Below are positions 30 to 38,979 of a stretch of 38,979 bases of DNA, one piece after another. Position 1 is the stretch's first letter. Each line of letters opens with the position of its first letter. The notes beneath the pieces were generated by a model. The model ran no database searches and was not told the origin of the DNA. It saw only the letters and a program-made list of their open reading frames with translations. Source of the stretch: Kayfunavirus LM33P1; the sequence record OZ035813.1. One strand, 5' to 3'. Made by a program: the position numbers and the translations under genes.

Positions 30-293
30 ATGACGCAGATGGACTTAGAGAAGTTCCTGTTAATGCTGGACACAGAACGTGCTAGACTAATGCTGCAAGA
101 CCTGCGGGATGACACTAAGCGTTCACCTCAGCTCTACAACGCCATTGAGAAACTGCTTGCTCGACACAACTTTGTGTTAAGCAAGGTGTCTGTGGACGAG
201 AAGACGCTGGCGGATATGGAGGCCTTGAACGAAGAGTACGATAAGGTGCTTTCAGCTACTGAGGATAATGACACCGGGTATGGTGTTCAATAA
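30..293 (+). CDS. small terminase subunit (T7 gp18-like)
   Basis: 87-aa ORF immediately upstream of spanin and large terminase genes; size and motifs (FLLMLDTE, RSPQLYNAIEKLL) resemble T7 gp18 as recalled; ATG at 30 overlaps the TGA that would end the holin ORF wrapping from the window end. Confidence 0.8.
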   Translation: MTQMDLEKFLLMLDTERARLMLQDLRDDTKRSPQLYNAIEKLLARHNFVLSKVSVDEKTLADMEALNEEYDKVLSATEDNDTGYGVQ

Positions 294-389: not shown

Positions 390-839
390 ATGCTCGAATT
401 TTTAAAGAGAGCGGCTCCGTGGTTACTTGCAGCAGTGATGTTTGCTGGTGGCTACCACACCGCTAACAATAAGTGGGAGGCTAAGGTCAATGCAGAATAC
501 ACCTCGAATCTTAAGGCATCGGAAGATACAAGGCTTGCTGTCCAAGCTGAAGTCAACAAAGTGTCCAAACGGTTTCAGGACGAAATGTCCTCGCTGGAAG
601 GCAGCACTGATAGGATTATTGCTGACCTTCAGTCTGACAATAAGCGGTTGCGCATCCGAGTCAAACCAACGAGTGGAACCACGCAAAGTGACGGTCGATG
701 CTTCATTGATGGTTACGCCGAACTTGACGAACGAGATGCTAAACGTCTTATCGCCATCGGAGTGAAAGGAGACAAGTGGATTAAGGCCCTTCAAGACACT
801 GTGAGAGCCTTACAGCAAGAGAAGGAGGTGACGCATTGA
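390..839 (+). CDS. i-spanin, Rz-like (T7 gp18.5-like)
   Basis: 149 aa, N-terminal hydrophobic helix ([14 protein letters not shown]), position between gene 18 and 19 as in T7; SD GGGAGGG upstream of ATG. Confidence 0.8.
490..765 (+). CDS. o-spanin, Rz1-like lipoprotein embedded in +1 frame of the i-spanin gene (T7 gp18.7-like)
   Basis: ORF fully inside 390..839 in another frame; signal-like stretch [18 protein letters not shown] with lipobox-like ISGC; start codon uncertain (ATG at 490 chosen). Confidence 0.5.
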   Translation: MQNTPRILRHRKIQGLLSKLKSTKCPNGFRTKCPRWKAALIGLLLTFSLTISGCASESNQRVEPRKVTVDASLMVTPNLTNEMLNVLSPSE

Positions 840-2599
840 GTAAAGACTTAGTGGCGCGTCAGGCGCTAATGACTGCACGTATGAAGTCAGACTTCGTGTT
901 CTTCCTGTTCGTCCTGTGGAAAGCTCTGTCGCTCCCAGTCCCGACTCGCTGTCAGATTGACATGGCGAAGAAACTATCGGCTGGGGACAACAGGCGCTTC
1001 ATCCTACAGGCGTTCCGTGGTATAGGGAAGTCCTTCATTACGTGTGCCTTCGTTGTCTGGAAGCTATGGAACAACCCAGACTTGAAGTTCATGATTGTGT
1101 CGGCCTCAAAGGAGCGAGCCGATGCTAACTCCATCTTCATCAAGCGAATCATCGACCTCATGCCTCAGCTTCAGGAACTCAAACCTAAGCAGGGACAGCG
1201 AGATGCGGTTATTAGCTTCGACGTGGGACCTGCCAAGCCAGACCACTCACCTTCGGTTAAGTCCGTTGGTATCACTGGTCAGTTGACTGGTAGTCGTGCT
1301 GACATCCTGATTGCCGATGACGTGGAGGTTCCGAACAACTCAGCGACTCAGGCTGCACGAGACCGTCTATCAGAGCTTGTGAAAGAGTTCGACGCTATCC
1401 TGAAGCCGGGAGGTACGATCATCTATCTGGGTACTCCTCAGAACGAGATGACCCTGTACCGTGAGCTGGAAGGTCGTGGGTACACCACTACTATCTGGCC
1501 CGCTCGTTATCCACGCGACAGGAAGGACTGGCAGTCTTACGGCGACCGTCTGGCTCCTATGCTTCAGGAAGAGCTGGAAGAGGACCCTGAGTCCTTCTAC
1601 TGGCGTCCGACTGATGAAGTACGCTTCGATGATACGGACCTGAAGGAACGTGAGCTGTCCTACGGTAAAGCTGGCTTCGCTCTACAGTTCATGCTTAACC
1701 CGAACCTGAGTGATGCCGAGAAGTACCCTCTTAAGCTCCGTGACCTTATCGTAGCCGACTTGGACCCAGCGTCCAGCCCAATGGTCTACCAATGGTTGCC
1801 GAACCCTCAGAACAAGCGTGAGGACGTTCCTAACGTTGGACTCATGGGTGACTCGTACCACACGTATCAGACTGTAGGTTCTGCCTTCAGCTCATACACC
1901 CAGAAGATTCTGGTCATTGACCCTAGTGGTCGTGGTAAGGATGAAACTGGATATGCGGTACTGTACCAGCTCAACGGCTACATCTTCGCTATGGAAGTTG
2001 GTGGCATGCGTGGTGGTTATGAAGACTCTACGCTGGAAGCCTTGGCTAAGATTGGTCGTAAGTGGAGGGTCAACGAATACGTCATTGAGGGTAACTTCGG
2101 TGATGGTATGTACCTTGAGTTATTCAAGCCTGTAGCTGCCCGTATCCATCCTGCTGCTGTAACTGAAGTGAAGAGTAAGGGTCAGAAAGAACTCCGCATC
2201 TGTGACGTTCTGGAGCCTATCATGGGGTCTCACAGACTTATCGTTAACGCTGCCGCTATCGTCCAAGACTACCAGTCAGCCTCTGATAAGGATGGTGTTC
2301 GTAACCCTATCTACTCTCTCTTCTACCAGATGACTCGTATCTCTCGTGAACGTGGAGCATTGGCACATGATGACCGACTTGATGCGCTGGCTATCGGTGT
2401 ACAGTTCTTCGTTGAGTCGATGGCTAAGGATGCCAACAAAGGCGAACGTGAAGTCACTGAGGAGTGGCTGGAGGAACAGATGGAGAACCCACGGAAAGGC
2501 TTCGAGTCCATCCACACTGAGTTCTGGGACAATGGGGTCCGGGTAACTCACGATACGGACGACGAGCTTGGACTAGGGTCATACGTTACGTTCCACTAG
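836..2599 (+). CDS. terminase large subunit (T7 gp19-like)
   Basis: 587 aa; strong similarity to recalled T7 gp19 ([64 protein letters not shown]); start is TTG at 836 preceded by AGGAGG, N-terminal length matches T7. Confidence 0.95.
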
Positions 2600-2693: not shown

Positions 2694-2716
2694 ACTTAAC
2701 TATCACTATAGGGAAG
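2694..2716 (+). promoter_or_regulatory. phage RNAP promoter (phiOR-like, right end)
   Basis: ACTTAACTATCACTATAGGGAAG; predicted +1 at 2711. Confidence 0.75.
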
Positions 2717-2896: not shown

Positions 2897-3055
2897 ATGG
2901 CAAAGACCAAAGCTGTACTTAAAGCTCTGGCGACCAATCGAGCTACATACAGGTTTCTTACTGCTGTTCTACTTGCTGCTGGCGTTACTGCTGGAAGTCA
3001 GTGGGTCGGGTGGGTCGAGACTCTCGTATGTTCTCTGGTCTCTCAGTGTAATTAA
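2897..3055 (+). CDS. small hydrophobic protein (gene 19.5 position)
   Basis: 52-codon ORF with AGGAGG 10 nt upstream, downstream of a phage promoter; below the length cutoff of the supplied ORF track. Confidence 0.45.
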   Translation: MAKTKAVLKALATNRATYRFLTAVLLAAGVTAGSQWVGWVETLVCSLVSQCN

Positions 3056-3164
3056 CGCAATCATGATAACAATCAACGAAAGGAGGTAGGGATGGACGAG
3101 GAGTCTTATGGGTCGTTCTCTGACGAAGATTATCAGACGGAGTGGGAATACGCGCATTGAAGAC

Positions 3165-3205
3165 CTAAGGTCAGTTCATAGCTGACGCTACTCTACTGAC
3201 CTTAG
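3165..3205 (+). repeat. 10-bp perfect inverted repeat (CTAAGGTCAG / CTGACCTTAG) near the right genome end
   Basis: arms separated by 21 nt; non-coding context. Confidence 0.5.
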
Positions 3206-3368
3206 CTACTGTAGTCAAGGACTTTAGGTAACACCTTAAGAGAAGCTCACTTAGGGTCATCCTACTTATTGGTCTATCCTAGTGTCGCCTGACCTACGGT
3301 CCTTGACCTACAGTGGCTGTGGCCTACAGTAGTGACGATGAGTTTTGGACAAAAAGTTTGAGACCACA

Positions 3369-3580
3369 TCTCACACTTCAAGAACCTCAAGTCTCCCCAT
3401 AGGCCCTCTTTCAGTCCAGACCAAAGGCCCTACCCGTTACTGCTCCTTGCAGTCACAGCCAGTCTATCATAAGGTTGGACAGATGGTCAAGACTTAAGGT
3501 CAACGATAGGCTGAGGCTATGGCTTAGGGAAGGACGATAGGTTGGGACTATTGGTCTTCTTTGAGTCTCTATCTGTATAA
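3369..3580 (+). repeat. predicted direct terminal repeat / genome left end (collapsed single copy)
   Basis: begins TCTCACA like the T7 left end and ends GAGTCTCTATCTGTATAACC resembling the end of the T7 terminal repeat; boundaries approximate. Confidence 0.35.
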
Positions 3581-3700
3581 CCATAAGTCACAACCATAGG
3601 TCACAGCCTACCTCTCACAACCATAAGTCATAACCTACAGTCTCACTAACCTACAGTCTCAACCATAAGACACCAACACCTACAGTCATAGACCTACAGT
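3581..3700 (+). repeat. array of short direct repeats (CCATAAGTCA / CCTACAGTC) next to the predicted terminal repeat
   Basis: at least 9 copies of the 8-10 bp motifs within 120 bp; analogous to the CCTAAAG heptamers at the T7 left end. Confidence 0.6.
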
Positions 3701-3790
3701 TAATAGACACAAGGCTATAGACTTAAGGTCTAAGACATGTTAGTCAAAGACTATATCCTCTTACACCATGGGGCCGACGATAGCTTAATC

Positions 3791-3840
3791 AATATTATTT
3801 CAAATTACCTATTGACTATAGGTCCAGACTATGGCCTAAT
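3791..3840 (+). promoter_or_regulatory. candidate host sigma70 early promoter (A1-like) with AT-rich upstream element
   Basis: AT-rich AATATTATTTCAAATTACCT then TTGACT at 3812-3817; -10 weak (CCTAAT at 17-bp spacing or TAATAG). Confidence 0.35.
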
Positions 3841-3951
3841 AGCTTCCGTCAACACGACACGGCAACAACCGGATAGTGAAGACGCCGGTCCGGTCCGGTT
3901 AAGTAGTCAGCCTGTAAGACATACGAACAACAGGCAACCGACAGAAAGTAG

Positions 3952-3981
3952 TTGACAGGCAGTAACGACTTAAAGTAATAT
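3952..3981 (+). promoter_or_regulatory. host sigma70 early promoter (T7 A3-like)
   Basis: TTGACA, 18-bp spacer, TAATAT; downstream GTACCACAT..GAAAC..GCTCTTTAACAATCTGG resembles the T7 A3 leader. Confidence 0.6.
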
Positions 3982-4095
3982 GTACCACATCGAAACAACG
4001 GTGATGACCAACACTGAATGGTCTACCTGAAGTCCTCTGACTGAAGGGAATGCTCTTTAACAATCTGGATAAACTCTTAATGTGCGCCGATAGCG

Positions 4096-4151
4096 ACTAA
4101 CTACAGGGCCTTTGAGTCTACATCTGAAGGCCCTGACTGATAGTCACTAAC
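4096..4151 (+). promoter_or_regulatory. early-region repeated hairpin element (copy 1)
   Basis: contains GGCCCTGACTGATAGTCACTAAC and a 7-bp stem CAGGGCC/GGCCCTG; lies just upstream of the first early ORF. Confidence 0.4.
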
Positions 4152-4158
4152 TTAAAGG

Positions 4159-4413
4159 ATGGACACTATGAAACACTTAAGCACAATCACTAATCGCAAT
4201 GAAGTATTCGTGAACACTAAAGGTTATGCGTGGATTCAGCTTAAAGAGATGACAGGAGCGCGTCACCGTGTGGTAGTGCGCAAGGTATCAAGCAAGCAGT
4301 TCAGCAACTACAGCGTCGATACTGTGCGTATAGACAACGAGACATACCTGATAGACTCGCAGATAACCGTGAGTCCTACAGTGGGCGTCTCAGCTCCTTA
4401 TTTCGCTAACTGA
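4159..4413 (+). CDS. hypothetical early protein, first gene after the host promoters
   Basis: 84-aa ORF about 90 nt downstream of the T7-like leader GCTCTTTAACAATCTGG; no recognisable motif; alternative ATG at 4168. Confidence 0.5.
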   Translation: MDTMKHLSTITNRNEVFVNTKGYAWIQLKEMTGARHRVVVRKVSSKQFSNYSVDTVRIDNETYLIDSQITVSPTVGVSAPYFAN

Positions 4414-4420
4414 GAGTGAT

Positions 4421-4468
4421 TAACTACAGGTCGTTAGACTGATAGCGGCCTGACTGATAGTCACTAAC
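4421..4468 (+). promoter_or_regulatory. early-region repeated hairpin element (copy 2)
   Basis: ACTACAGGTC..GGCCTGACTGATAGTCACTAAC upstream of ocr. Confidence 0.4.
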
Positions 4469-4496
4469 ACATAATTAACTTTGAGAGGATATAACT

Positions 4497-5000
4497 ATGG
4501 AACGTAATGCTAACGCATACTATGAGCTGCTGGCTGCAACCGTTGAGGCATTTATCGAGCGTATTCAGTACGACCACCTGACTCAAGATGACGACTACAG
4601 CGCTGCGCTGCATGAGGTCGTAGACGGTCAGGTTCCACACTATTACCACGAGATTTTTACGGTGATGGCTGCTGATGGTATAGACAACGAGTTCGAAGAC
4701 TCTGGGATGATACCTGAAACCAAGGACGTAACGCGTATCCTACAAGCTCGCATCTATGAGGCACTTTATAACGACGTGTCTAATAGCTTGGATGTAGTCT
4801 GGTTTGAGGATGAAGAGGCAGACGAAGAGGATGAATATTGGGTAGTTGACGCTAAAACAGGCGCAATAATTGTGCAAGCTGTAGCTCTTGAGGTCGCTAC
4901 TGCATGTGCCAAGGTCAACTATGTGATAGGTCGCCACCTTCAGGTGGAAGACATCAATGATAACGTAGTGTTTGACCCTGCTGCTGAGGACTGCGAGTGA
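4497..5000 (+). CDS. ocr: Ocr-like anti-restriction DNA-mimic protein (T7 gp0.3 homolog) with C-terminal extension
   Basis: residues 1-110 align with recalled T7 Ocr ([45 protein letters not shown] versus T7 [45 protein letters not shown]); acidic patch, then about 50 extra residues absent from T7 Ocr. Confidence 0.8.
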   Translation: [167 protein letters not shown]

Positions 5001-5149
5001 TGGTAACTTATGGCCTCTGCCAGCACCACGTCACTAACGCCCGGCTTATGGTCAAGACCGGGCAGTTAGACCACGATTGGGCTATGCGTCTCTTGAAAGT
5101 GGTCTACAGGAGACGCAAGCGTATACACGACAGTTTACACGCTAAGTGA
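5000..5149 (+). CDS. small basic hypothetical protein
   Basis: 49-aa ORF whose ATG overlaps the ocr stop (TGATG); ends just before a repeated hairpin element. Confidence 0.35.
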   Translation: MVTYGLCQHHVTNARLMVKTGQLDHDWAMRLLKVVYRRRKRIHDSLHAK

Positions 5150-5150
5150 C

Positions 5151-5196
5151 AGACTACAGGTCATCAATGCTGGTGGCCTGACTGATAGTCATTAAC
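5151..5196 (+). promoter_or_regulatory. early-region repeated hairpin element (copy 3)
   Basis: GACTACAGGTCA..GGCCTGACTGATAGTCATTAAC upstream of ORF 5213. Confidence 0.4.
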
Positions 5197-5212
5197 AACT
5201 GAGAGGGAAGAT

Positions 5213-5440
5213 ATGAACACAATCACTGGTGCCATAACCAAAGGTTTTCGAGCAATTTTCGGTGAAACGCAAGAAGTATGCACCAATCATAAATTCGTAC
5301 TTTCTTGCGTAGCAGGTGACGAGTTTGACGGGTTCGATAAACTGGTGGTTTGCGACCATTGCGGACAAGAGGCTATCCAACACTCAAACGGTAAATTTGA
5401 ATTAATAGACGATAGCCTTACAGAAGGAGACGGCGAGTAA
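5213..5440 (+). CDS. hypothetical early protein with four-cysteine (zinc-ribbon-like) motif
   Basis: 75 aa; Cys pairs in VCTNHKFVLSC and CDHC; SD GAGAGGGAAG upstream. Confidence 0.5.
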   Translation: MNTITGAITKGFRAIFGETQEVCTNHKFVLSCVAGDEFDGFDKLVVCDHCGQEAIQHSNGKFELIDDSLTEGDGE

Positions 5441-5572
5441 CCTAAATAAACAGGAGAGAACCAAATCATAGCTTGACCATAACACTGACGTGATGGTACT
5501 GAGTGATAGACGAGAGGTCATCGACTGATAGGTGGCCTCAAAGATTACCACTTACATTGATAGGAGTTAACT

Positions 5573-5677
5573 ATGAGCACTGCAATCATCTGGACTATCT
5601 CAGGCTTCGTAGCGTGGGGAATGTTTACTCTAGTCTGCAAACTACCGGTCCTTACTCAACTGTTATGGGGCTTATGA
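5573..5677 (+). CDS. small hydrophobic early peptide
   Basis: 34-aa ORF with SD TAGGAG upstream; TGA overlaps next ATG (ATGA). Confidence 0.3.
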   Translation: MSTAIIWTISGFVAWGMFTLVCKLPVLTQLLWGL

Positions 5678-5877
5678 CTATGAGTATCGCACTATTGATA
5701 GCCATAGGCTATGGACTTATCGCCTACGTGCTGGTGAGAGACATCAACAAAGCGCGTAAAGTCTACAAATTCAAATATGTACGTCTGGGTAGCTGGACTG
5801 TACGTCAACCTAACGGACGATTCATGCGTAACTTAGCGAACGTCTGGGATATAGCAACACTTGGGAGCAAACTGTAA
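5674..5877 (+). CDS. small membrane protein (early)
   Basis: 67 aa with N-terminal TM-like helix SIALLIAIGYGLIAYVLV; translationally coupled to neighbours by ATGA overlaps. Confidence 0.4.
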   Translation: MTMSIALLIAIGYGLIAYVLVRDINKARKVYKFKYVRLGSWTVRQPNGRFMRNLANVWDIATLGSKL

Positions 5878-6203
5878 TGAACAAGTCATACGGGATTAAT
5901 CTGGTACACTCTATGGACGCAGACATGCAAATGTTAAGCCTACTGGCTACCGGGTATCGTCACGGAACGTCAAGTCACTCCGCACGTCAACAGCAGGAGC
6001 GGGACCGGGTACTGCAAGCAAGACTCCGGGCTGAGGGCCATAAGTCCGAACTAATGTGTCTGGTGTATGGTGGACGACCAATCACTGACGATGGTAAACT
6101 TTTAGTCTCAGGCTGGAAGGCGATAGACCAACGGTCAACCATCAAGCACACGACTCATGGTGACTTCAGTCATCTCCACGCTAACCCGCTGATATGCAAG
6201 TAA
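5877..6203 (+). CDS. hypothetical early protein
   Basis: 108-aa ORF at the position where T7 carries the gp0.7 kinase; no kinase motifs seen. Confidence 0.55.
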   Translation: MNKSYGINLVHSMDADMQMLSLLATGYRHGTSSHSARQQQERDRVLQARLRAEGHKSELMCLVYGGRPITDDGKLLVSGWKAIDQRSTIKHTTHGDFSHLHANPLICK

Positions 6204-6208
6204 TTCTG

Positions 6209-6231
6209 ACTTAACTATCACTATAGGACTC
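6209..6231 (+). promoter_or_regulatory. phage RNAP promoter immediately upstream of the RNAP gene
   Basis: ACTTAACTATCACTATAGGACTC; predicted +1 at 6226. Confidence 0.7.
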
Positions 6232-6300: not shown

Positions 6301-8982
6301 ATGAGCGTCATCTCTATTGACAAGCACGACTTCTCTGATGTGTCGAACGCCATTGAGCCGTTTAACCTACTGGCTGACCACTACGGGCAAGACATTGCAG
6401 TCAAACAGCTTCAGCTTGAGCACGAGGCATACACTGAAGGCGAGCGACGTTTCATCAAGAACCTTGAGAGACAGACTGAGCGAGGGGAACTGGCAGACAA
6501 TCAGGTCGCCAAGCCTTTGATGCAGACTCTGGTCCCTAAGATTGCGCAAGCCGTCAAGGAGTGGCATGAAGGTCCAGACGGGAAGCTGTCAACCTCTCGT
6601 CCGAGCGTAGCGTTCACCATGTTGAGCACTGAAGAGAAGGCCGTAAAGGTCCGCTCTTTGCGCATCTCCTGCGAGTCTGCTGCGGTTATCATATTGAAGG
6701 TCATACTCTCCAAGCTGGTCAAGCCTGAAGGGATACCGATTACACCGATGGCCTCAGCGATAGGTCGCACACTTGAGGACGAAATCCGCTTCGGTCGCAT
6801 CCGTGACAAGGAGAAAGAGCACTTCAAGAAGGCGATAGCTGATAACCTGAATAAGCGGGCCGGGGCGTCCTACAAGAAAGCCTACATGCAAGCGGTCGAG
6901 GCATCCATGCTGGAGCAAGGCCAACTGGAAGATGCGTGGGGGACTTGGAGTCCGACCGAGGCTGTCCACGTTGGAATCAAGATGCTGGAGATTGTCATCC
7001 AGTCCACACAACTGGTCGAGCTTAAGCGTTACGGTGCTGGCAATGCAGCGGCTGACGTTGAGATGGTCCACCTGTCAGACTTCTGGGTCAAGAAGATGGC
7101 ACAACGAGGATTCAGCCTTGCGGGTATAGCTCCAGTCTACCAGCCTTGCGTCGTTCCACCTAAGCCGTGGACTGGTGTCGTAGGCGGTGGGTACTGGGCC
7201 AAAGGACGCAGACCATTACCACTGATTCGCTTAGGGTCTAAGTCTGCGGTAGCACGCTACGAAGACGTGTATATGCCTGAAGTCTATGACGCTGTGAACA
7301 TCATTCAGAATACACCTTGGAAAGTGAACAAGAAGGTTCTGGAAGTGGTGAACATGGTCGAGAAGCTGAACAACACGCCTATTGATGACATCCCTCAGAT
7401 GGAACCGCTGAAGCCTGAGGACTATGCGGGTGAGACTGAAGAAGAACTCAAGGCATGGAAGAAGGCTGCTGCTGGTATCTATCGCCGCGAGAAGGCCAGA
7501 CAGTCACGAAGATTGTCACTGAGCTTTATCGTCAACCAAGCGAACAAGTTCTCTCAGTTCAAGGCCATCTGGTTCCCGTATAACATGGACTGGCGCGGTC
7601 GCGTCTACGCTGTGCCGATGTTCAACCCTCAGGGTAACGACATGCAAAAGGGTCTTCTGACTCTGGCAGTCGGTAAGCCTATTGGTGCTGATGGTTTCAA
7701 ATGGCTGAAGGTCCACGGTGCAAACTGCGCGGGTGTCGATAAAGTCACCTTCGAGGAGCGTATCAAGTGGGTGGAAGATAACCACGACAACATCATGGCT
7801 GCTGCCAAGGCACCGATGGATAGCATTGAGTGGTGGGGCAAGTTAGACTCTCCGTTCTGCTTCCTAGCGTTCTGCTTCGAGTATGCTGGCGTAATGCACC
7901 ACGGCTTGTCTTACTCCTGCTCGCTGCCGATAGCGTTCGATGGGTCCTGCTCTGGGATTCAGCACTTCAGCGCTATGCTTCGCGACCACATCGGTGGACA
8001 TGCAGTAAACCTGACGCCATCCGGTAAGGTCCAAGACATCTACCGCATCGTGTCTGACCGCATTGAGGAGGAGCTTAAAGTCCTACTGGTTAACGGTACG
8101 GACAACGAGATGGTAACTCACGAGGACAAGAAAACTGGTGAGATTACCGAGCGTCTCAAGCTGGGGACACGAGAGCTTGCCCGTCAGTGGCTGACCTACG
8201 GTATGTCACGAAAGGTCACTAAGCGTTCGGTCATGACTCTGGCCTACGGGTCGAAAGAGTACGGCTTCGCAGACCAAGTTTACGAGGACATCGTGATGCC
8301 AGCGATTGACTCAGGGTCTGGCGCTATGTTCACTGAACCAAGCCAAGCATCTCGCTTCATGGCTAAGATGATTTGGGAAGCTGTGAGTGTGACCGTAGTT
8401 GCTGCGGTTGACGCGATGAAATGGCTTCAGGGTGCTGCCAAGCTGCTTGCTGCTGAAGTGAAGGACAAGAAGACTGGAGAAATCCTGAAGCCTTGTCTTC
8501 CGGTACACTGGGTCACACCTGATGGTTTCCCTGTCTGGCAGGAATACCGCAAGAAGGACACCACTCGTCTGAACCTGATGTTCTTAGGGTCATTCAACCT
8601 TCAGCCTACCGTCAACAAAGGCACGAAGAAAGAGCTGGACAAGCACAAGCAGGAGTCAGGCATTAGCCCGAACTTCGTCCACTCACAAGATGGTAGCCAC
8701 CTCCGCAAGACTGTAGTCCACACGCACCGCAAATATGGCGTGATGTCATTCGCAGTGATTCACGATAGCTTCGGGACCATCCCGGCTGACGCTGAGTATC
8801 TGTTCCGTGGAGTCCGTGAGACGATGGTCGAGACCTACCGCGACAACGATGTGCTGCTTGACTTCTACGAGCAGTTTGAATACCAGCTTCACGAGAGCCA
8901 GAGAGACAAGTTGCCTGAGCTTCCGAAGAAAGGTAAACTGAATATCGAAGACATCTTGTCTTCAGACTTTGCATTCGCTTAA
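6301..8982 (+). CDS. T7-like single-subunit DNA-directed RNA polymerase (gp1)
   Basis: 893 aa; characteristic T7 RNAP sequence throughout (for example PMFNPQGNDMQKGLLTLA, HDSFGT, AFCFEYAGV, C-terminal FAFA). Confidence 0.97.
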   Translation: MSVISIDKHDFSDVSNAIEPFNLLADHYGQDIAVKQLQLEHEAYTEGERRFIKNLERQTERGELADNQVAKPLMQTLVPKIAQAVKEWHEGPDGKLSTSRPSVAFTMLSTEEKAVKVRSLRISCESAAVIILKVILSKLVKPEGIPITPMASAIGRTLEDEIRFGRIRDKEKEHFKKAIADNLNKRAGASYKKAYMQAVEASMLEQGQLEDAWGTWSPTEAVHVGIKMLEIVIQSTQLVELKRYGAGNAAADVEMVHLSDFWVKKMAQRGFSLAGIAPVYQPCVVPPKPWTGVVGGGYWAKGRRPLPLIRLGSKSAVARYEDVYMPEVYDAVNIIQNTPWKVNKKVLEVVNMVEKLNNTPIDDIPQMEPLKPEDYAGETEEELKAWKKAAAGIYRREKARQSRRLSLSFIVNQANKFSQFKAIWFPYNMDWRGRVYAVPMFNPQGNDMQKGLLTLAVGKPIGADGFKWLKVHGANCAGVDKVTFEERIKWVEDNHDNIMAAAKAPMDSIEWWGKLDSPFCFLAFCFEYAGVMHHGLSYSCSLPIAFDGSCSGIQHFSAMLRDHIGGHAVNLTPSGKVQDIYRIVSDRIEEELKVLLVNGTDNEMVTHEDKKTGEITERLKLGTRELARQWLTYGMSRKVTKRSVMTLAYGSKEYGFADQVYEDIVMPAIDSGSGAMFTEPSQASRFMAKMIWEAVSVTVVAAVDAMKWLQGAAKLLAAEVKDKKTGEILKPCLPVHWVTPDGFPVWQEYRKKDTTRLNLMFLGSFNLQPTVNKGTKKELDKHKQESGISPNFVHSQDGSHLRKTVVHTHRKYGVMSFAVIHDSFGTIPADAEYLFRGVRETMVETYRDNDVLLDFYEQFEYQLHESQRDKLPELPKKGKLNIEDILSSDFAFA

Positions 8983-32540: not shown

Positions 32541-35500
32541 ATGGCGACTCGTGGTATTCGCAATAACAATCCGGGTAACATCCGGGTAAGTAAGGACCAA
32601 TGGGAAGGGATGACTGGAGATGATGGCGCATTCGTCACCTTCGATAGTCCAGAGTCTGGCGTCCGAGCTTTAGGTAAAAACCTGCTGTCCTACGGTCGCC
32701 AAGGTTATGACTCCATCGAGAAGATTATCAACCGATGGGCACCTCCTAACGAGAACGACACTAAGGCTTATATTGACTCAGTGGTGGCTGCAACTGGTAT
32801 TCCAGCTACCCAGAGTCTAGACCTATCTGACCCTGACACCCTGTCTTCTCTGGCACAAGCTATCAGCTTCCATGAGACAGGATCACGGTACGACCCTGAA
32901 GTCTATCAGAAGGGAGTCGCACGGGCACTCAATGGCATTAGCCCAAAGACTCCACCAGTAAGCGCTAACGTATTTGACGCACTCACGGAAGGACTCAAGG
33001 CTAAACCTAAAGTAGATCTGGGCGAGAACCTTCCGACCGCTGCTGGTCTAAACATTGAGGGTCAAGCACCTGAAGCTCCCAACGAATCGTTCGGTGAGAT
33101 GTTCTATAAGTCTACTGGCGAGACCATGCAGGAACGAGAGGATCGCTCTACGTGGTTCGGTTTCGGCTCGGCTACAGAAGCTGAAGTGAAGAACTCTATG
33201 GTCGGCGTGGCTATCCGCGCTGGTCAGACCGAGGACTCACTTGATGTCATTGGCGATGTGTTTAACCCGACCCGCTGGAACAACCATAAGTGGTCTCGTG
33301 AGGAGCTGGACCAGATTCGTAACGCTGGAGTTCTTCCTCAGTATTACGGGGTCATTACTGGTGGCTCCCCTCAGAACCTGACCGAGCTTATTAACTTGGC
33401 GCTTGAGAATCAGAAGTTGGACCAAGAGAAGGCCAAGGCTGGGATTGGTGCTCAGTTAGCTGCTGGTGTGATTGGGGCTGGCGTGGACCCTCTGACCTAC
33501 GTTCCTATTGCTGGGCAGGTAGGCAAAGGTGGGAAGCTAGTCAACAAGATGTTCACTGTGGCAGCTCAGTCTGGTGCTCTGGCTGGTGTGTCTGAGATGG
33601 CCCGTACCTCAGTGGCTGGTGGTGATGCTCATGTGGCTGAAGCTATCCTTGGCGGTGCTCTCTTCGGTGGTGGCATGACTGCTATCGCTGATGGGTTAGG
33701 CAGAGCCTTAGGCCGCAACACTAATGAGTTTGCTGGCCCAGCTACACGTCTGGAAGCTCGTGAGACCGCTCGTAACGTTGATGGTCAGGACCTGTCTCGT
33801 CTTCCTATTCAGGAAGGTGAGCAGACCTTTAGTCATCAAGGTGTTAAGTTCGCAGACGTTCCGAACGAGCCGGGTAGTGTACGACTGGAAGATGGTTCAA
33901 TCCTGATTGGTGAGAATCCTCTGAACCCTCAGACACGTAAAGTCTTTGACGAAGTGATTGAGCCTGAACGTGCCGCTGCTGGTGTGAACCTTGGTGGGCT
34001 GACTGAGATTGGCCTGAAGCTGCTTCGGTCCGAGAACCCTGAGATTCGTGGAGTAGCTGCTGACTTAGTACGTTCACCGACTGGTATGCAGTCTGGGGCC
34101 TCAGGTAAAATAGGGACAACTGCGTCAGACGTATTCGAGAGACTTCGTGCTGTGGACCATCGGTTCTACAATGACATCGACGATGCGGTTACTGAGGCAC
34201 TAAAGGACCCGTACTTCCAGACAGCATTCTGGCGAGACTCTGGCGCATTCCGTCAAGACATCTATCAGCGCGTGTCTATGGCTATCGAAGATGGTAGCGG
34301 AAACCTGAAGGCTGAATTGACTCCGGGAGAACTGAAAGTCTATGACCTGCTGAAGAACCAGTTTGACGCCAAGCGTGAGATGATGGAGAACCCCGCTATG
34401 TTTGGTCGCCCAGACGCTCAGTCTATCTTTCCGGGTAGCCGCTTCAAGGGAACATACGTCCCGCATGTGTATAGCAACCAGATGAAGGAGCTGTACATCA
34501 AGGAGCTTGGGAGTCCAGAGGCACTACAGGAGGCCATCAAGAAGTCATGGTTGACCAGCTATGCGTCTCGACCTGAAGTCAAGAAACGTGTGGACGAGGC
34601 ACTCTTAGAGGCTGACCCTACGTTGACTCCAGAAGGACTTGCGGCTGCGGTCGATAAGTACGCCAACGATAAGGCTTATGGTATCTCTCACACCGAGCAG
34701 TTCGAGCGTTCATCCGTAATGGAAGAGAACATCAATGGTCTGGTGGGTCTGGAGAACAACAGCTTCCTTGAGGCTCGTAACCTGTTCGATAGCGATATGT
34801 CAATCGTCCTACCTAACGGTCAGACCTTCAGTGTCAACAACCTGCGTGAGTGGGACATGGACAAGATTGTCCCGGCCTACAACCGTCGAGTTAATGGCGA
34901 TATTGCTATCATGGCTGGTACAGGCAAGACCACGAAGGACATGAAGGACTTGGTTGAGACCCTGATGAACAAGGCTGGGGATGACGGTAAGTTGAAAGGT
35001 GAAGTATCTACCTTACGTGACACTTTGAAGATTCTAACTGGTCGTGCTCGACGTGATGGTGCTGATGATGCGGCCTTCGCTACCGTGATGCGCACAATGA
35101 CAGACCTATCGTTCTTCGCTAAGAATGCCTACATGGGTGTTCAGAACTTAACGGAGATTGGTGGTATGCTGGCTCGTGGTAACGTTCGTGCAATGCTTCA
35201 TGGAGTCCCAATTTTCCGTGACCTAGCCTTCCGTAACAAGAAGGTTGGGGCCTCAGAGATTAAGGACCTGCACAATGTTATCTTCGGTAAGGAACTGGAT
35301 GACTCAATCCGTCCGTCTAAACAGGATGTCATTGACCGTCTGCGATCTTACAGTGACCTCGGTCGTGGTACAGCTACAGCTCTGGGGACTGCCAAGTATT
35401 ACACTGGCGAACTTGCAGTACGCTCTCCGTTCACTAAAGTCCTCAACGGTACGACCAACTACCTGTTAGATGCTGGACGTCAGGGCTTCCTGTCTGACAT

Positions 35501-36428
35501 CGTGGAGCATAGCCTGACTGGTAGTAAGCGTAAGTTCGATGACCGCTGGCTGAAGACCGCTGGTATCTCTGACGAGCAGTGGAAGGGCATTAAGTCCCTA
35601 ATCCGTGAGTCAGTGACTCGTGGTCCAGACGGGAAGTACACCATCAAGGATAAGAAGGCGTTCAGTCAGGACCCAAGGGCTATGGACCTCTGGCGTATGG
35701 GTGACACCATCGCTGACGAGACGTTACTCCGGCCTCATAAGCTGTCAAACATGGACGCCAAGGCTTATGGTCCTCTCGCTAAGACTGTCCTTCAGTTTAA
35801 GAACTTCGTCATCAAGTCTATCAATGGGAGAACCATGCGAACCTTCTATAACGCCACGAAGAACAACAGAGCGATTGACGCTGCACTGTCGACCGTGATG
35901 TCTATGGGTCTGGCTGGTATCTACTACATGGCTCAGGCGCATGTCAAGGCTTATGCTATGCAGGATGGTCGAGACCGTGACTACCTTAAGCAAGCTCTGG
36001 ACCCAACGATGATTGGCTATGCGGCCCTGTCCCGTAGTTCACATCTTGGTGGCCCACTTGGGGTAGCTAACATTCTGGGTGGAATCGCTGGGTATGAGGA
36101 CACTAAGATGCTCCGCTCGTCAATCCTTCCGCGCTCACCTACCGAGAAGACGGAGAAGCCAATCGCCTTTGGTGCTGCTTCCAGTGGTCCGGTAATGAAT
36201 GTGGTCGGCAACTTCCTTGAGCAGGTCCCGGCTTTCGGCTATGCTGCTAACGTTGGTGCTACGGCTTACAACTTGGCGGGATACCTCAAGGCTGATACCC
36301 GTGTCAACGAGCGAGACTACATGACCGGGATGTATAACACGTTCCGTGAACTTGTACCGAATGACCCGATTACCCAGAAGTTGCTGCTTGGAACGTTTGA
36401 GGAGCAGGGCATCCACATCAAGGACTAA
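32541..36428 (+). CDS. internal virion protein D (gp16) with divergent N-terminal domain
   Basis: about 1295 aa from ATG 32541; from about residue 200 onward close match to T7 gp16 (RSPTGMQSGASGK, MENPAMFG, NGDIAIMAGTGKTTK, FKNFVIKSINGRTMRTFY, GTFEEQG); first about 190 residues lack the T7 transglycosylase-like sequence. Confidence 0.9.
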   Translation: MATRGIRNNNPGNIRVSKDQWEGMTGDDGAFVTFDSPESGVRALGKNLLSYGRQGYDSIEKIINRWAPPNENDTKAYIDSVVAATGIPATQSLDLSDPDTLSSLAQAISFHETGSRYDPEVYQKGVARALNGISPKTPPVSANVFDALTEGLKAKPKVDLGENLPTAAGLNIEGQAPEAPNESFGEMFYKSTGETMQEREDRSTWFGFGSATEAEVKNSMVGVAIRAGQTEDSLDVIGDVFNPTRWNNHKWSREELDQIRNAGVLPQYYGVITGGSPQNLTELINLALENQKLDQEKAKAGIGAQLAAGVIGAGVDPLTYVPIAGQVGKGGKLVNKMFTVAAQSGALAGVSEMARTSVAGGDAHVAEAILGGALFGGGMTAIADGLGRALGRNTNEFAGPATRLEARETARNVDGQDLSRLPIQEGEQTFSHQGVKFADVPNEPGSVRLEDGSILIGENPLNPQTRKVFDEVIEPERAAAGVNLGGLTEIGLKLLRSENPEIRGVAADLVRSPTGMQSGASGKIGTTASDVFERLRAVDHRFYNDIDDAVTEALKDPYFQTAFWRDSGAFRQDIYQRVSMAIEDGSGNLKAELTPGELKVYDLLKNQFDAKREMMENPAMFGRPDAQSIFPGSRFKGTYVPHVYSNQMKELYIKELGSPEALQEAIKKSWLTSYASRPEVKKRVDEALLEADPTLTPEGLAAAVDKYANDKAYGISHTEQFERSSVMEENINGLVGLENNSFLEARNLFDSDMSIVLPNGQTFSVNNLREWDMDKIVPAYNRRVNGDIAIMAGTGKTTKDMKDLVETLMNKAGDDGKLKGEVSTLRDTLKILTGRARRDGADDAAFATVMRTMTDLSFFAKNAYMGVQNLTEIGGMLARGNVRAMLHGVPIFRDLAFRNKKVGASEIKDLHNVIFGKELDDSIRPSKQDVIDRLRSYSDLGRGTATALGTAKYYTGELAVRSPFTKVLNGTTNYLLDAGRQGFLSDIVEHSLTGSKRKFDDRWLKTAGISDEQWKGIKSLIRESVTRGPDGKYTIKDKKAFSQDPRAMDLWRMGDTIADETLLRPHKLSNMDAKAYGPLAKTVLQFKNFVIKSINGRTMRTFYNATKNNRAIDAALSTVMSMGLAGIYYMAQAHVKAYAMQDGRDRDYLKQALDPTMIGYAALSRSSHLGGPLGVANILGGIAGYEDTKMLRSSILPRSPTEKTEKPIAFGAASSGPVMNVVGNFLEQVPAFGYAANVGATAYNLAGYLKADTRVNERDYMTGMYNTFRELVPNDPITQKLLLGTFEEQGIHIKD

Positions 36429-38817: not shown

Positions 38818-38979
38818 ATGATTGAGTTAGACTTCAAGAATGAGGTCCTCAAAGCCTCGCCTATCGTCGGGACCGCTGCGGCTGATGGTGCCAGTCGGTT
38901 CTTCTTTGGGCTAACGCTCAACGAATGGTTCTACGTCGCTGCTATCGCGTACACCGTGGTGCAGATTGGCGTCCTAATT
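38818..38979 (+). CDS. holin (gp17.5), 3' end runs off the window
   Basis: MIELDFKNEVLKASPIVGTAAADGASRFFFGLTLNEWFYVAAIAYTVVQIG closely matches T7 holin; ORF is still open at the last base and stays in frame into bases 1-33 if the window is circularly joined. Confidence 0.8.
   Translation, partial: MIELDFKNEVLKASPIVGTAAADGASRFFFGLTLNEWFYVAAIAYTVVQIGVLI

Follow-up and report, generated by a model that had tools for sequence, protein, structure and literature searches.

Homology with congeneric genome ends points to a 202-bp direct terminal repeat within the circularly permuted sequence of Escherichia phage LM33_P1

Introduction

The locus considered here raises the question of whether the physical ends of a phage genome lie in the interior of its assembled sequence and, if so, at which bases. 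The window, by which is meant the whole 38,979-nt stretch of DNA that was analysed (OZ035813.1), opens within a holin gene. An initial annotation, made from its letters, had placed the genome ends and a terminal repeat of roughly 210 bp between positions 3369 and 3580, on the basis of a likeness to the T7 terminal repeat. The evidence assembled below argues that phage LM33_P1 has a short exact direct terminal repeat (DTR) of T7 type, 202 bp in length, and that 3369..3570 is its one copy in the assembly, a reading to which a probability of roughly 0.87 is assigned. The physical ends and terminal redundancy of this phage are inferred by homology to Kayfunavirus DTRs and were not observed, because the assembly, being collapsed, holds one copy only. 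All features described below lie on the + strand.

The window and the deposited record

The window is the 38,979-bp genome of Escherichia phage LM33_P1 (LT594300.1/NC_031937.1, genus Kayfunavirus) after a rotation of 3,376 bases, with base 1 of NC_031937.1 falling at window 3377. Identity around the DTR region is 100% by BLAST, and the sole difference between the window and the rotated record is a group of 12 mismatches at 8267-8285. The initial annotation had the holin ORF running off the end of the window and being finished in frame by bases 1-33, which is borne out by both translation and the annotation of the record. The 5' part of the holin gene (gene 17.5, 38818..38979), when joined with 1-33, encodes a 64-aa protein without an internal stop, and its TGA at 31-33 overlaps the ATG of gene 18 at 30-32. 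The coordinates that NC_031937.1 gives for the holin (35442-35636) and for the small terminase (35633-35896) agree with the layout of the window. The related proposal, that a full genome is present in circularly permuted form, is also correct, with the trivial cause that the deposited record has been rotated.

The window contains no second copy of 3369-3570, and no 15-mer of the segment recurs in it. Assemblers are reported to put the first base of genomes with such repeats at an arbitrary position (PMC5557969). The two copies of the repeat would have been collapsed into a circle during assembly, so that the record and the window each hold it once; such a collapse would also explain why the public record starts 8 bp inside the predicted repeat and why the window could open in the holin gene. 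Among the papers searched, those that mention LM33_P1 contain nothing on its genome ends, and the phage is absent from the PhageTerm paper.

The public linear record opens at window 3377 and ends ...CCACATCTCACAC, and if these termini were taken at face value the true left end would be 3377, with the octamer TCTCACAC present at the right end only. Unlike those of congeners with known repeats, however, this record has neither a terminal duplication (exact prefix-equals-suffix length 0) nor a repeat annotation, which indicates that its ends are choices of assembly or editing, and all relatives with determined ends, as well as T7, open with TCTCAC 8 bp further upstream. A left end at 3377 is consequently regarded as extremely improbable, and 3369 is retained as the predicted left end.

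Homology with the terminal repeats of Kayfunavirus phages

By BLAST, 225 phage records contain a match to the segment 3369-3570. Against annotated or record-terminal repeats the E-values range from 1e-54 to 6e-84 with 100% of the segment covered, and identity to the DTRs of congeneric phages is 82-95%. Matches lie at the record ends of K1F (1-179), EcoDS1 (1-178), Mt1B1_P3 (1-202), Milel, Bia and KM02. The end columns are shared in eight relatives (K1F, EcoDS1, Mt1B1_P3, Milel, Bia, KM02, SH3 and Peacock), the ends of which were obtained by run-off sequencing, with PhageTerm or from the duplication at the record ends. The segment is therefore orthologous to the repeats of its congeners, whose left and right boundaries occupy the same columns of the alignment. 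The surroundings agree as well: on the left lie gene 19.5 and short repeats, and on the right ATCTGTAT, an array of short repeats and the early promoters for host RNA polymerase.

When computed from the records (some lengths from alignment files and not from whole records), the exact prefix-equals-suffix repeat measures 178 bp in K1F and in EcoDS1, 179 bp in Bia, 177 bp in KM02, 184 bp in SH3 and 202 bp in both Milel and Mt1B1_P3. The ends of SH3 were determined by run-off sequencing of virion DNA, giving 183 bp (PMC4925675), and the repeat of K1F is cited within the same paper as 179 bp. PhageTerm was used to set the ends of Mt1B1_P3 (PMC10470868) and those of Peacock and Penshu1, in which the repeats are 179 bp long, and for the genus as a whole repeats of 179-286 bp have been reported (PMC13298934). 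Annotations of the repeat_region type are carried by EcoDS1, SH3 and Peacock; EcoDS1 labels 1-178 as 'terminal repeat' and 177-184 (CTATCTGT) as 'concatemeric junction'.

A 24-bp indel (GTTACTGCTCCTTGCAGTCACAGC), located in the region of window 3392-3415 within the repeat (alignment columns 192-215), splits the Kayfunavirus repeats into two classes. The class of about 178 bp comprises K1F, EcoDS1, Bia, KM02, SH3, HC13 and Peacock, whereas the class of about 202 bp carries the insertion and comprises LM33_P1, Mt1B1_P3, Milel and HC12.

An assembly that closes as a circle, with the holin gene continuous across the window ends, could also be expected from headful (pac) packaging, in which case virion molecules would be circularly permuted and differ in their ends, and the segment would amount to a pac region alone. 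Moreover, PhageTerm returned a 'headful (pac)' call for the Kayfunavirus Sparklingdew beside a DTR of 212 bp, and the authors took their data to mean headful packaging (PMC13298934). Nevertheless, circular assemblies are also produced by the collapse of a short terminal repeat (PMC5557969), the large terminase of LM33_P1 bears a T7-specific nuclease domain, and the ends of congeners, obtained by independent laboratories and methods, are exact, fixed and at homologous positions. Headful packaging is thus considered very improbable for LM33_P1, for which fixed ends bearing a DTR are the preferred reading.

The left end

Among the aligned relatives that begin at their physical end, all left ends fall in the column of window 3369, so that the left end given in the initial annotation is exactly right. 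HC12 and HC13, which are single-copy records, are opened at precisely this base. The first base of the left-terminal octamer TCTCACAC (3369..3376) is the predicted left physical end, as judged from alignments of relatives and T7. The octamer TCTCACAG is found in T7 and in almost all relatives, and TCTCACAC matches it at 7/8 positions. The exception is the eighth base, 3376, which is C in the window and G in 22 matching loci and in T7.

Base 3376 is also the last base of the public LM33_P1 record, and an end-of-contig error was considered as the source of the C. This is unlikely, and the C is probably a natural polymorphism, because it recurs in one independent and otherwise divergent metagenomic contig from IMG/VR (L017).

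The right boundary and the comparison with T7

The right ends that can be read in relatives stop at GAGTCTC(T), equivalent to window 3569/3570. In Mt1B1_P3, Bia, EcoDS1 and KM02 the right end lies at GAGTCTCT, and in Milel at the variant GAGTCCAT; GAGTC(TC/CA)T, the last base of which corresponds to window 3570, closes the exact repeats of Mt1B1_P3, Milel, Bia and EcoDS1. The record of K1F stops at 3569, one base short of this, and that of SH3 4 bp further on (3574), giving a spread of up to 5 bp among the records of relatives. The alignments thus place the right end of the predicted LM33_P1 repeat at 3570, uncertain by a few bases, with a probable length of 202 bp (range 201-206).

The initial annotation had put this end near 3580; matched to the final 20 bases of the T7 repeat, the string GAGTCTCTATCTGTATAACC implies 3582. 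The strings that it quoted are present in the window (TCTCACACTTCAAG...CCCCATAGG from 3369, and GAGTCTCTATCTGTATAACC at 3563-3582), and the repeat to which it pointed is real, but congeners give 3570 and its boundary was about 12 bp too far to the right. With the right boundary moved inward by that amount, its overall interpretation is supported.

The resemblance to the T7 repeat that it had noted is above chance. When 3369-3570 is aligned globally with the 160-bp repeat of T7 (sequence taken from NC_001604.1), the score of 20.5 exceeds those of all 500 shuffles (6.6 +/- 2.6, maximum 17), and the left junction shares 38/60 identities with that of T7 without gaps. Both repeats open with TCTCACA. 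Towards the left end they have in common the blocks ACCT-AAGT and CCCCATAGG, and towards the right end TTGAGT-TCT; in each case ATCTGT comes straight after the repeat. The two phages are also alike in the genomic placement of the repeat, the type of terminase and the presence of a phiOR-like promoter upstream. In contrast, the repeat of LM33_P1 exceeds that of T7 by 42 bp and has a diverged interior. The short motifs of the ends occur at chance frequency in the window, with 5 matches to TCTCACAS (5.0 expected), 2 to CTATCTGTW (0.7 expected, not significant) and 3 to HATCTGTT (4.2 expected), so that motifs alone would be an insufficient basis for the claim; it is homology to congeners that carries the weight for the predicted ends.

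T7 has a near-duplicated stretch at its right junction (TCTCTCTGTGT / CCCTATCTGTT), as a result of which two registers score similarly and T7 alone cannot decide the right boundary. Its use as sole arbiter was dropped in view of these near-equal scores, and congeners were used instead. A repeat that starts at 3369 and runs to near 3582 (about 214 bp), as suggested by the final 20 bases of the T7 repeat, gives 21/32 ungapped identities at the T7 right junction, compared with 18/32 for the 3570 register, and is the register picked by MAFFT. However, none of the Kayfunavirus records with duplicated ends reaches so far, seven of them stopping in the columns of 3569-3574. In addition, the 3570 register aligns CT before the boundary and ATCTGT after it in both genera (T7 reads CCCT and then ATCTGTT), and fits the junction annotated in EcoDS1. 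There is thus very little probability that the repeat extends to 3582, and 3570 is kept as the predicted right end.

On these comparisons, the LM33_P1 repeat is an ordinary one, a further member of an already well-described class with the canonical end architecture of the T7 group.

The junction motif

The heptamer ATCTGTA (3571..3577) directly follows the predicted repeat and, by position and homology, is the putative counterpart of the class II pause/termination motif at the T7 concatemer junction, with a function that would correspond. Within the genus, ATCTGTAT is invariant in all aligned left ends. In T7 the repeat ends in CCCT and is followed at once by ATCTGTTACAG; the window, reading T-ATCTGTA, matches 6/7 bases of the T7 heptamer at the homologous position and differs in the last base (ATCTGTT in T7). 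The class II pause heptamer is said to have been given by He et al. in 1998 as ATCTGTT, preceded by A, C or T. More recently, the T7 concatemer junction has been described as a class II pause/terminator with a strictly conserved 7-base core (bioRxiv 10.64898/2026.02.12.705533). By analogy, ATCTGTA probably pauses phage RNA polymerase reading from the phiOR-like promoter at 2698.

Packaging genes and flanking DNA

A T7-type terminase (gp18 + gp19) is encoded in the window. Gene 18, for the small subunit, occupies 30..293 (Pfam PF11123 DNA_Packaging_2, E = 3.5e-12), and gene 19, for the T7-type large subunit, occupies 836..2599 (Pfam PF22530 Terminase-T7 RNaseH-like, E = 1.3e-37), both in accordance with the annotation of the record. 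Between genes 19 and 19.5 there is a phiOR-like phage RNA polymerase promoter core (2698..2712), which is an exact match to the EcoDS1 'phiOR'. The window has 11 matches to the phage promoter core, this one included, where 0.8 would be expected, and all 11 are on the + strand.

The predicted repeat is non-coding and lies between the last late gene (19.5), which ends at 3055, and the early promoters and gene 0.3. A stretch of 1,103 bp separates gene 19.5 from the first well-supported early gene, and a homologue of ocr is located at 4497-5000 (Pfam PF08684). To the left of the repeat, the non-coding right-end region (3056..3368; repeat families D2, D3 and D4, and alignment) contains short repeats of the ACCTACAGT/CCTAAGG type, together with some 35 bp of nearly invariant sequence (GACGATGAGTTTTGGACAAAAAGTTTGAGACCACA) that would abut the left-end cut site in the concatemer. 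The last 45 or so bases of this region are conserved in 10 Kayfunavirus sequences, and the last 20 or so are partly common to T7. The units of the flanking short repeats are ACCTACAGT/ACCATAAGT in LM33_P1, whereas that of T7 is CCTAAAG.

To the right, short imperfect direct repeats (AACCATAAGTCA / AACCTACAGTC) form an array at 3578..3735 (repeat families D1, D3 and D4), which is kept in relatives with variation in length and is placed in the same way as the short-repeat array beside the left repeat of T7. The first transcription signal inside the left end is an A1-like early promoter for host RNA polymerase (3812..3848), corresponding to the EcoDS1 'host RNAP promoter' at 469-505, and a second early host promoter, TTGACA-18-TAATAT (3952..3981), was found by promoter scan and corresponds to the EcoDS1 host promoter at 609-647. 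T7 has phiOL at position 405, whereas LM33_P1 is apparently without an equivalent; between the repeat and gene 1, no phiOL-like phage promoter core is present in 3578-6212, the first match being at 6213, just upstream of gene 1.

The 'homolog to Gp0.1 in K1F' that was added manually to the record is a 72-aa ORF at 3737-3955, for which Pfam gives no match. The ORF overlaps the first early host promoter (3812-3848) and extends as far as the start of the second (3952), and its coding status is doubtful.

Proposed maturation of concatemers

The maturation mechanism envisaged for LM33_P1 is inferred from T7, the present analysis having addressed homology and boundaries. Replication would yield head-to-tail concatemers in which adjacent genomes share one copy of the repeat, and the gp18/gp19 terminase would cut at fixed sites on either side of this shared copy. 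The left-end cut is predicted to fall before TCTCACAC (3369) and the right-end cut after ...GAGTCTCT (3570). The shared copy would then be duplicated by DNA synthesis from staggered nicks, leaving a repeat at both ends of each packaged molecule; an origin of such repeats by extension synthesis at staggered nicks has been described (PMC5557969). Transcription from 2698 and pausing at ATCTGTA (3571-3577) would probably assist the maturation of the concatemer. In T7, polymerase pausing at the concatemer junction has been linked to this process.

To the left of the DTR, a perfect 11-nt inverted repeat (CTAAGGTCAGT / ACTGACCTTAG; 3165..3205) with a 19-nt loop was identified by repeat search and DNA folding. 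Its arms (3165-3175 and 3195-3205) lie 164-204 nt from the DTR, and its computed folding energy as DNA is -11.5 kcal/mol (z = -2.7). The inverted repeat is also present in K1F, EcoDS1 has arms of 13 nt, and the arms are kept in all aligned Kayfunavirus sequences; no covariation support for the hairpin could be obtained among the aligned relatives, in which the arms are invariant. In the equivalent region of T7 there is only a weaker inverted repeat. A model with a hairpin intermediate was once proposed for the duplication of the T7 terminal repeat. On that model, 3165-3205 might be the site at which the concatemer snaps back as a hairpin to prime duplication of the DTR, a suggestion that must be considered speculative and rather unlikely. 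Were it true, the hairpin and the ATCTGTA pause site would together constitute a compact, sequence-defined maturation module of Kayfunavirus, and the rare TCTCACAC terminus would imply that the cut-site octamer can do without a fixed eighth base.

Significance of the ends and the RNA polymerase gene

The value of the predicted ends is mainly practical, in that neither the ends nor the length of the public record would represent the packaged DNA. If the repeat is present at both ends, the packaged LM33_P1 genome would be about 39,181 bp rather than 38,979 bp. Correct ends matter for the rebooting or engineering of LM33_P1, which is a therapeutic candidate, and for the comparison of genomes in a common register. 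The contexts of both cut sites, …GAGACCACA followed by TCTCACA… on the left and …GAGTCTCT followed by ATCTGTA… on the right, are conserved across the genus.

The mismatches between the window and the deposited record (window 8267-8285) correspond to 4891-4909 of NC_031937.1 and lie inside the ORF at 6301-8982. At this site NC_031937.1 has a local duplication, GAGGACATCGTGATGCC-AG-GGACATCGTGATGCC, which is found in no other locus and breaks the gene for the phage RNA polymerase into two CDS. GFADQVYEDI is encoded here by the window and by 11 relatives, and the RNA polymerase ORF of the window is intact, with 893 aa. 'Two RNA polymerases' have been noted in LM33_P1 (PMC13298934); given the intact ORF of the window and a duplication that is unique to the record, these look like a record error.
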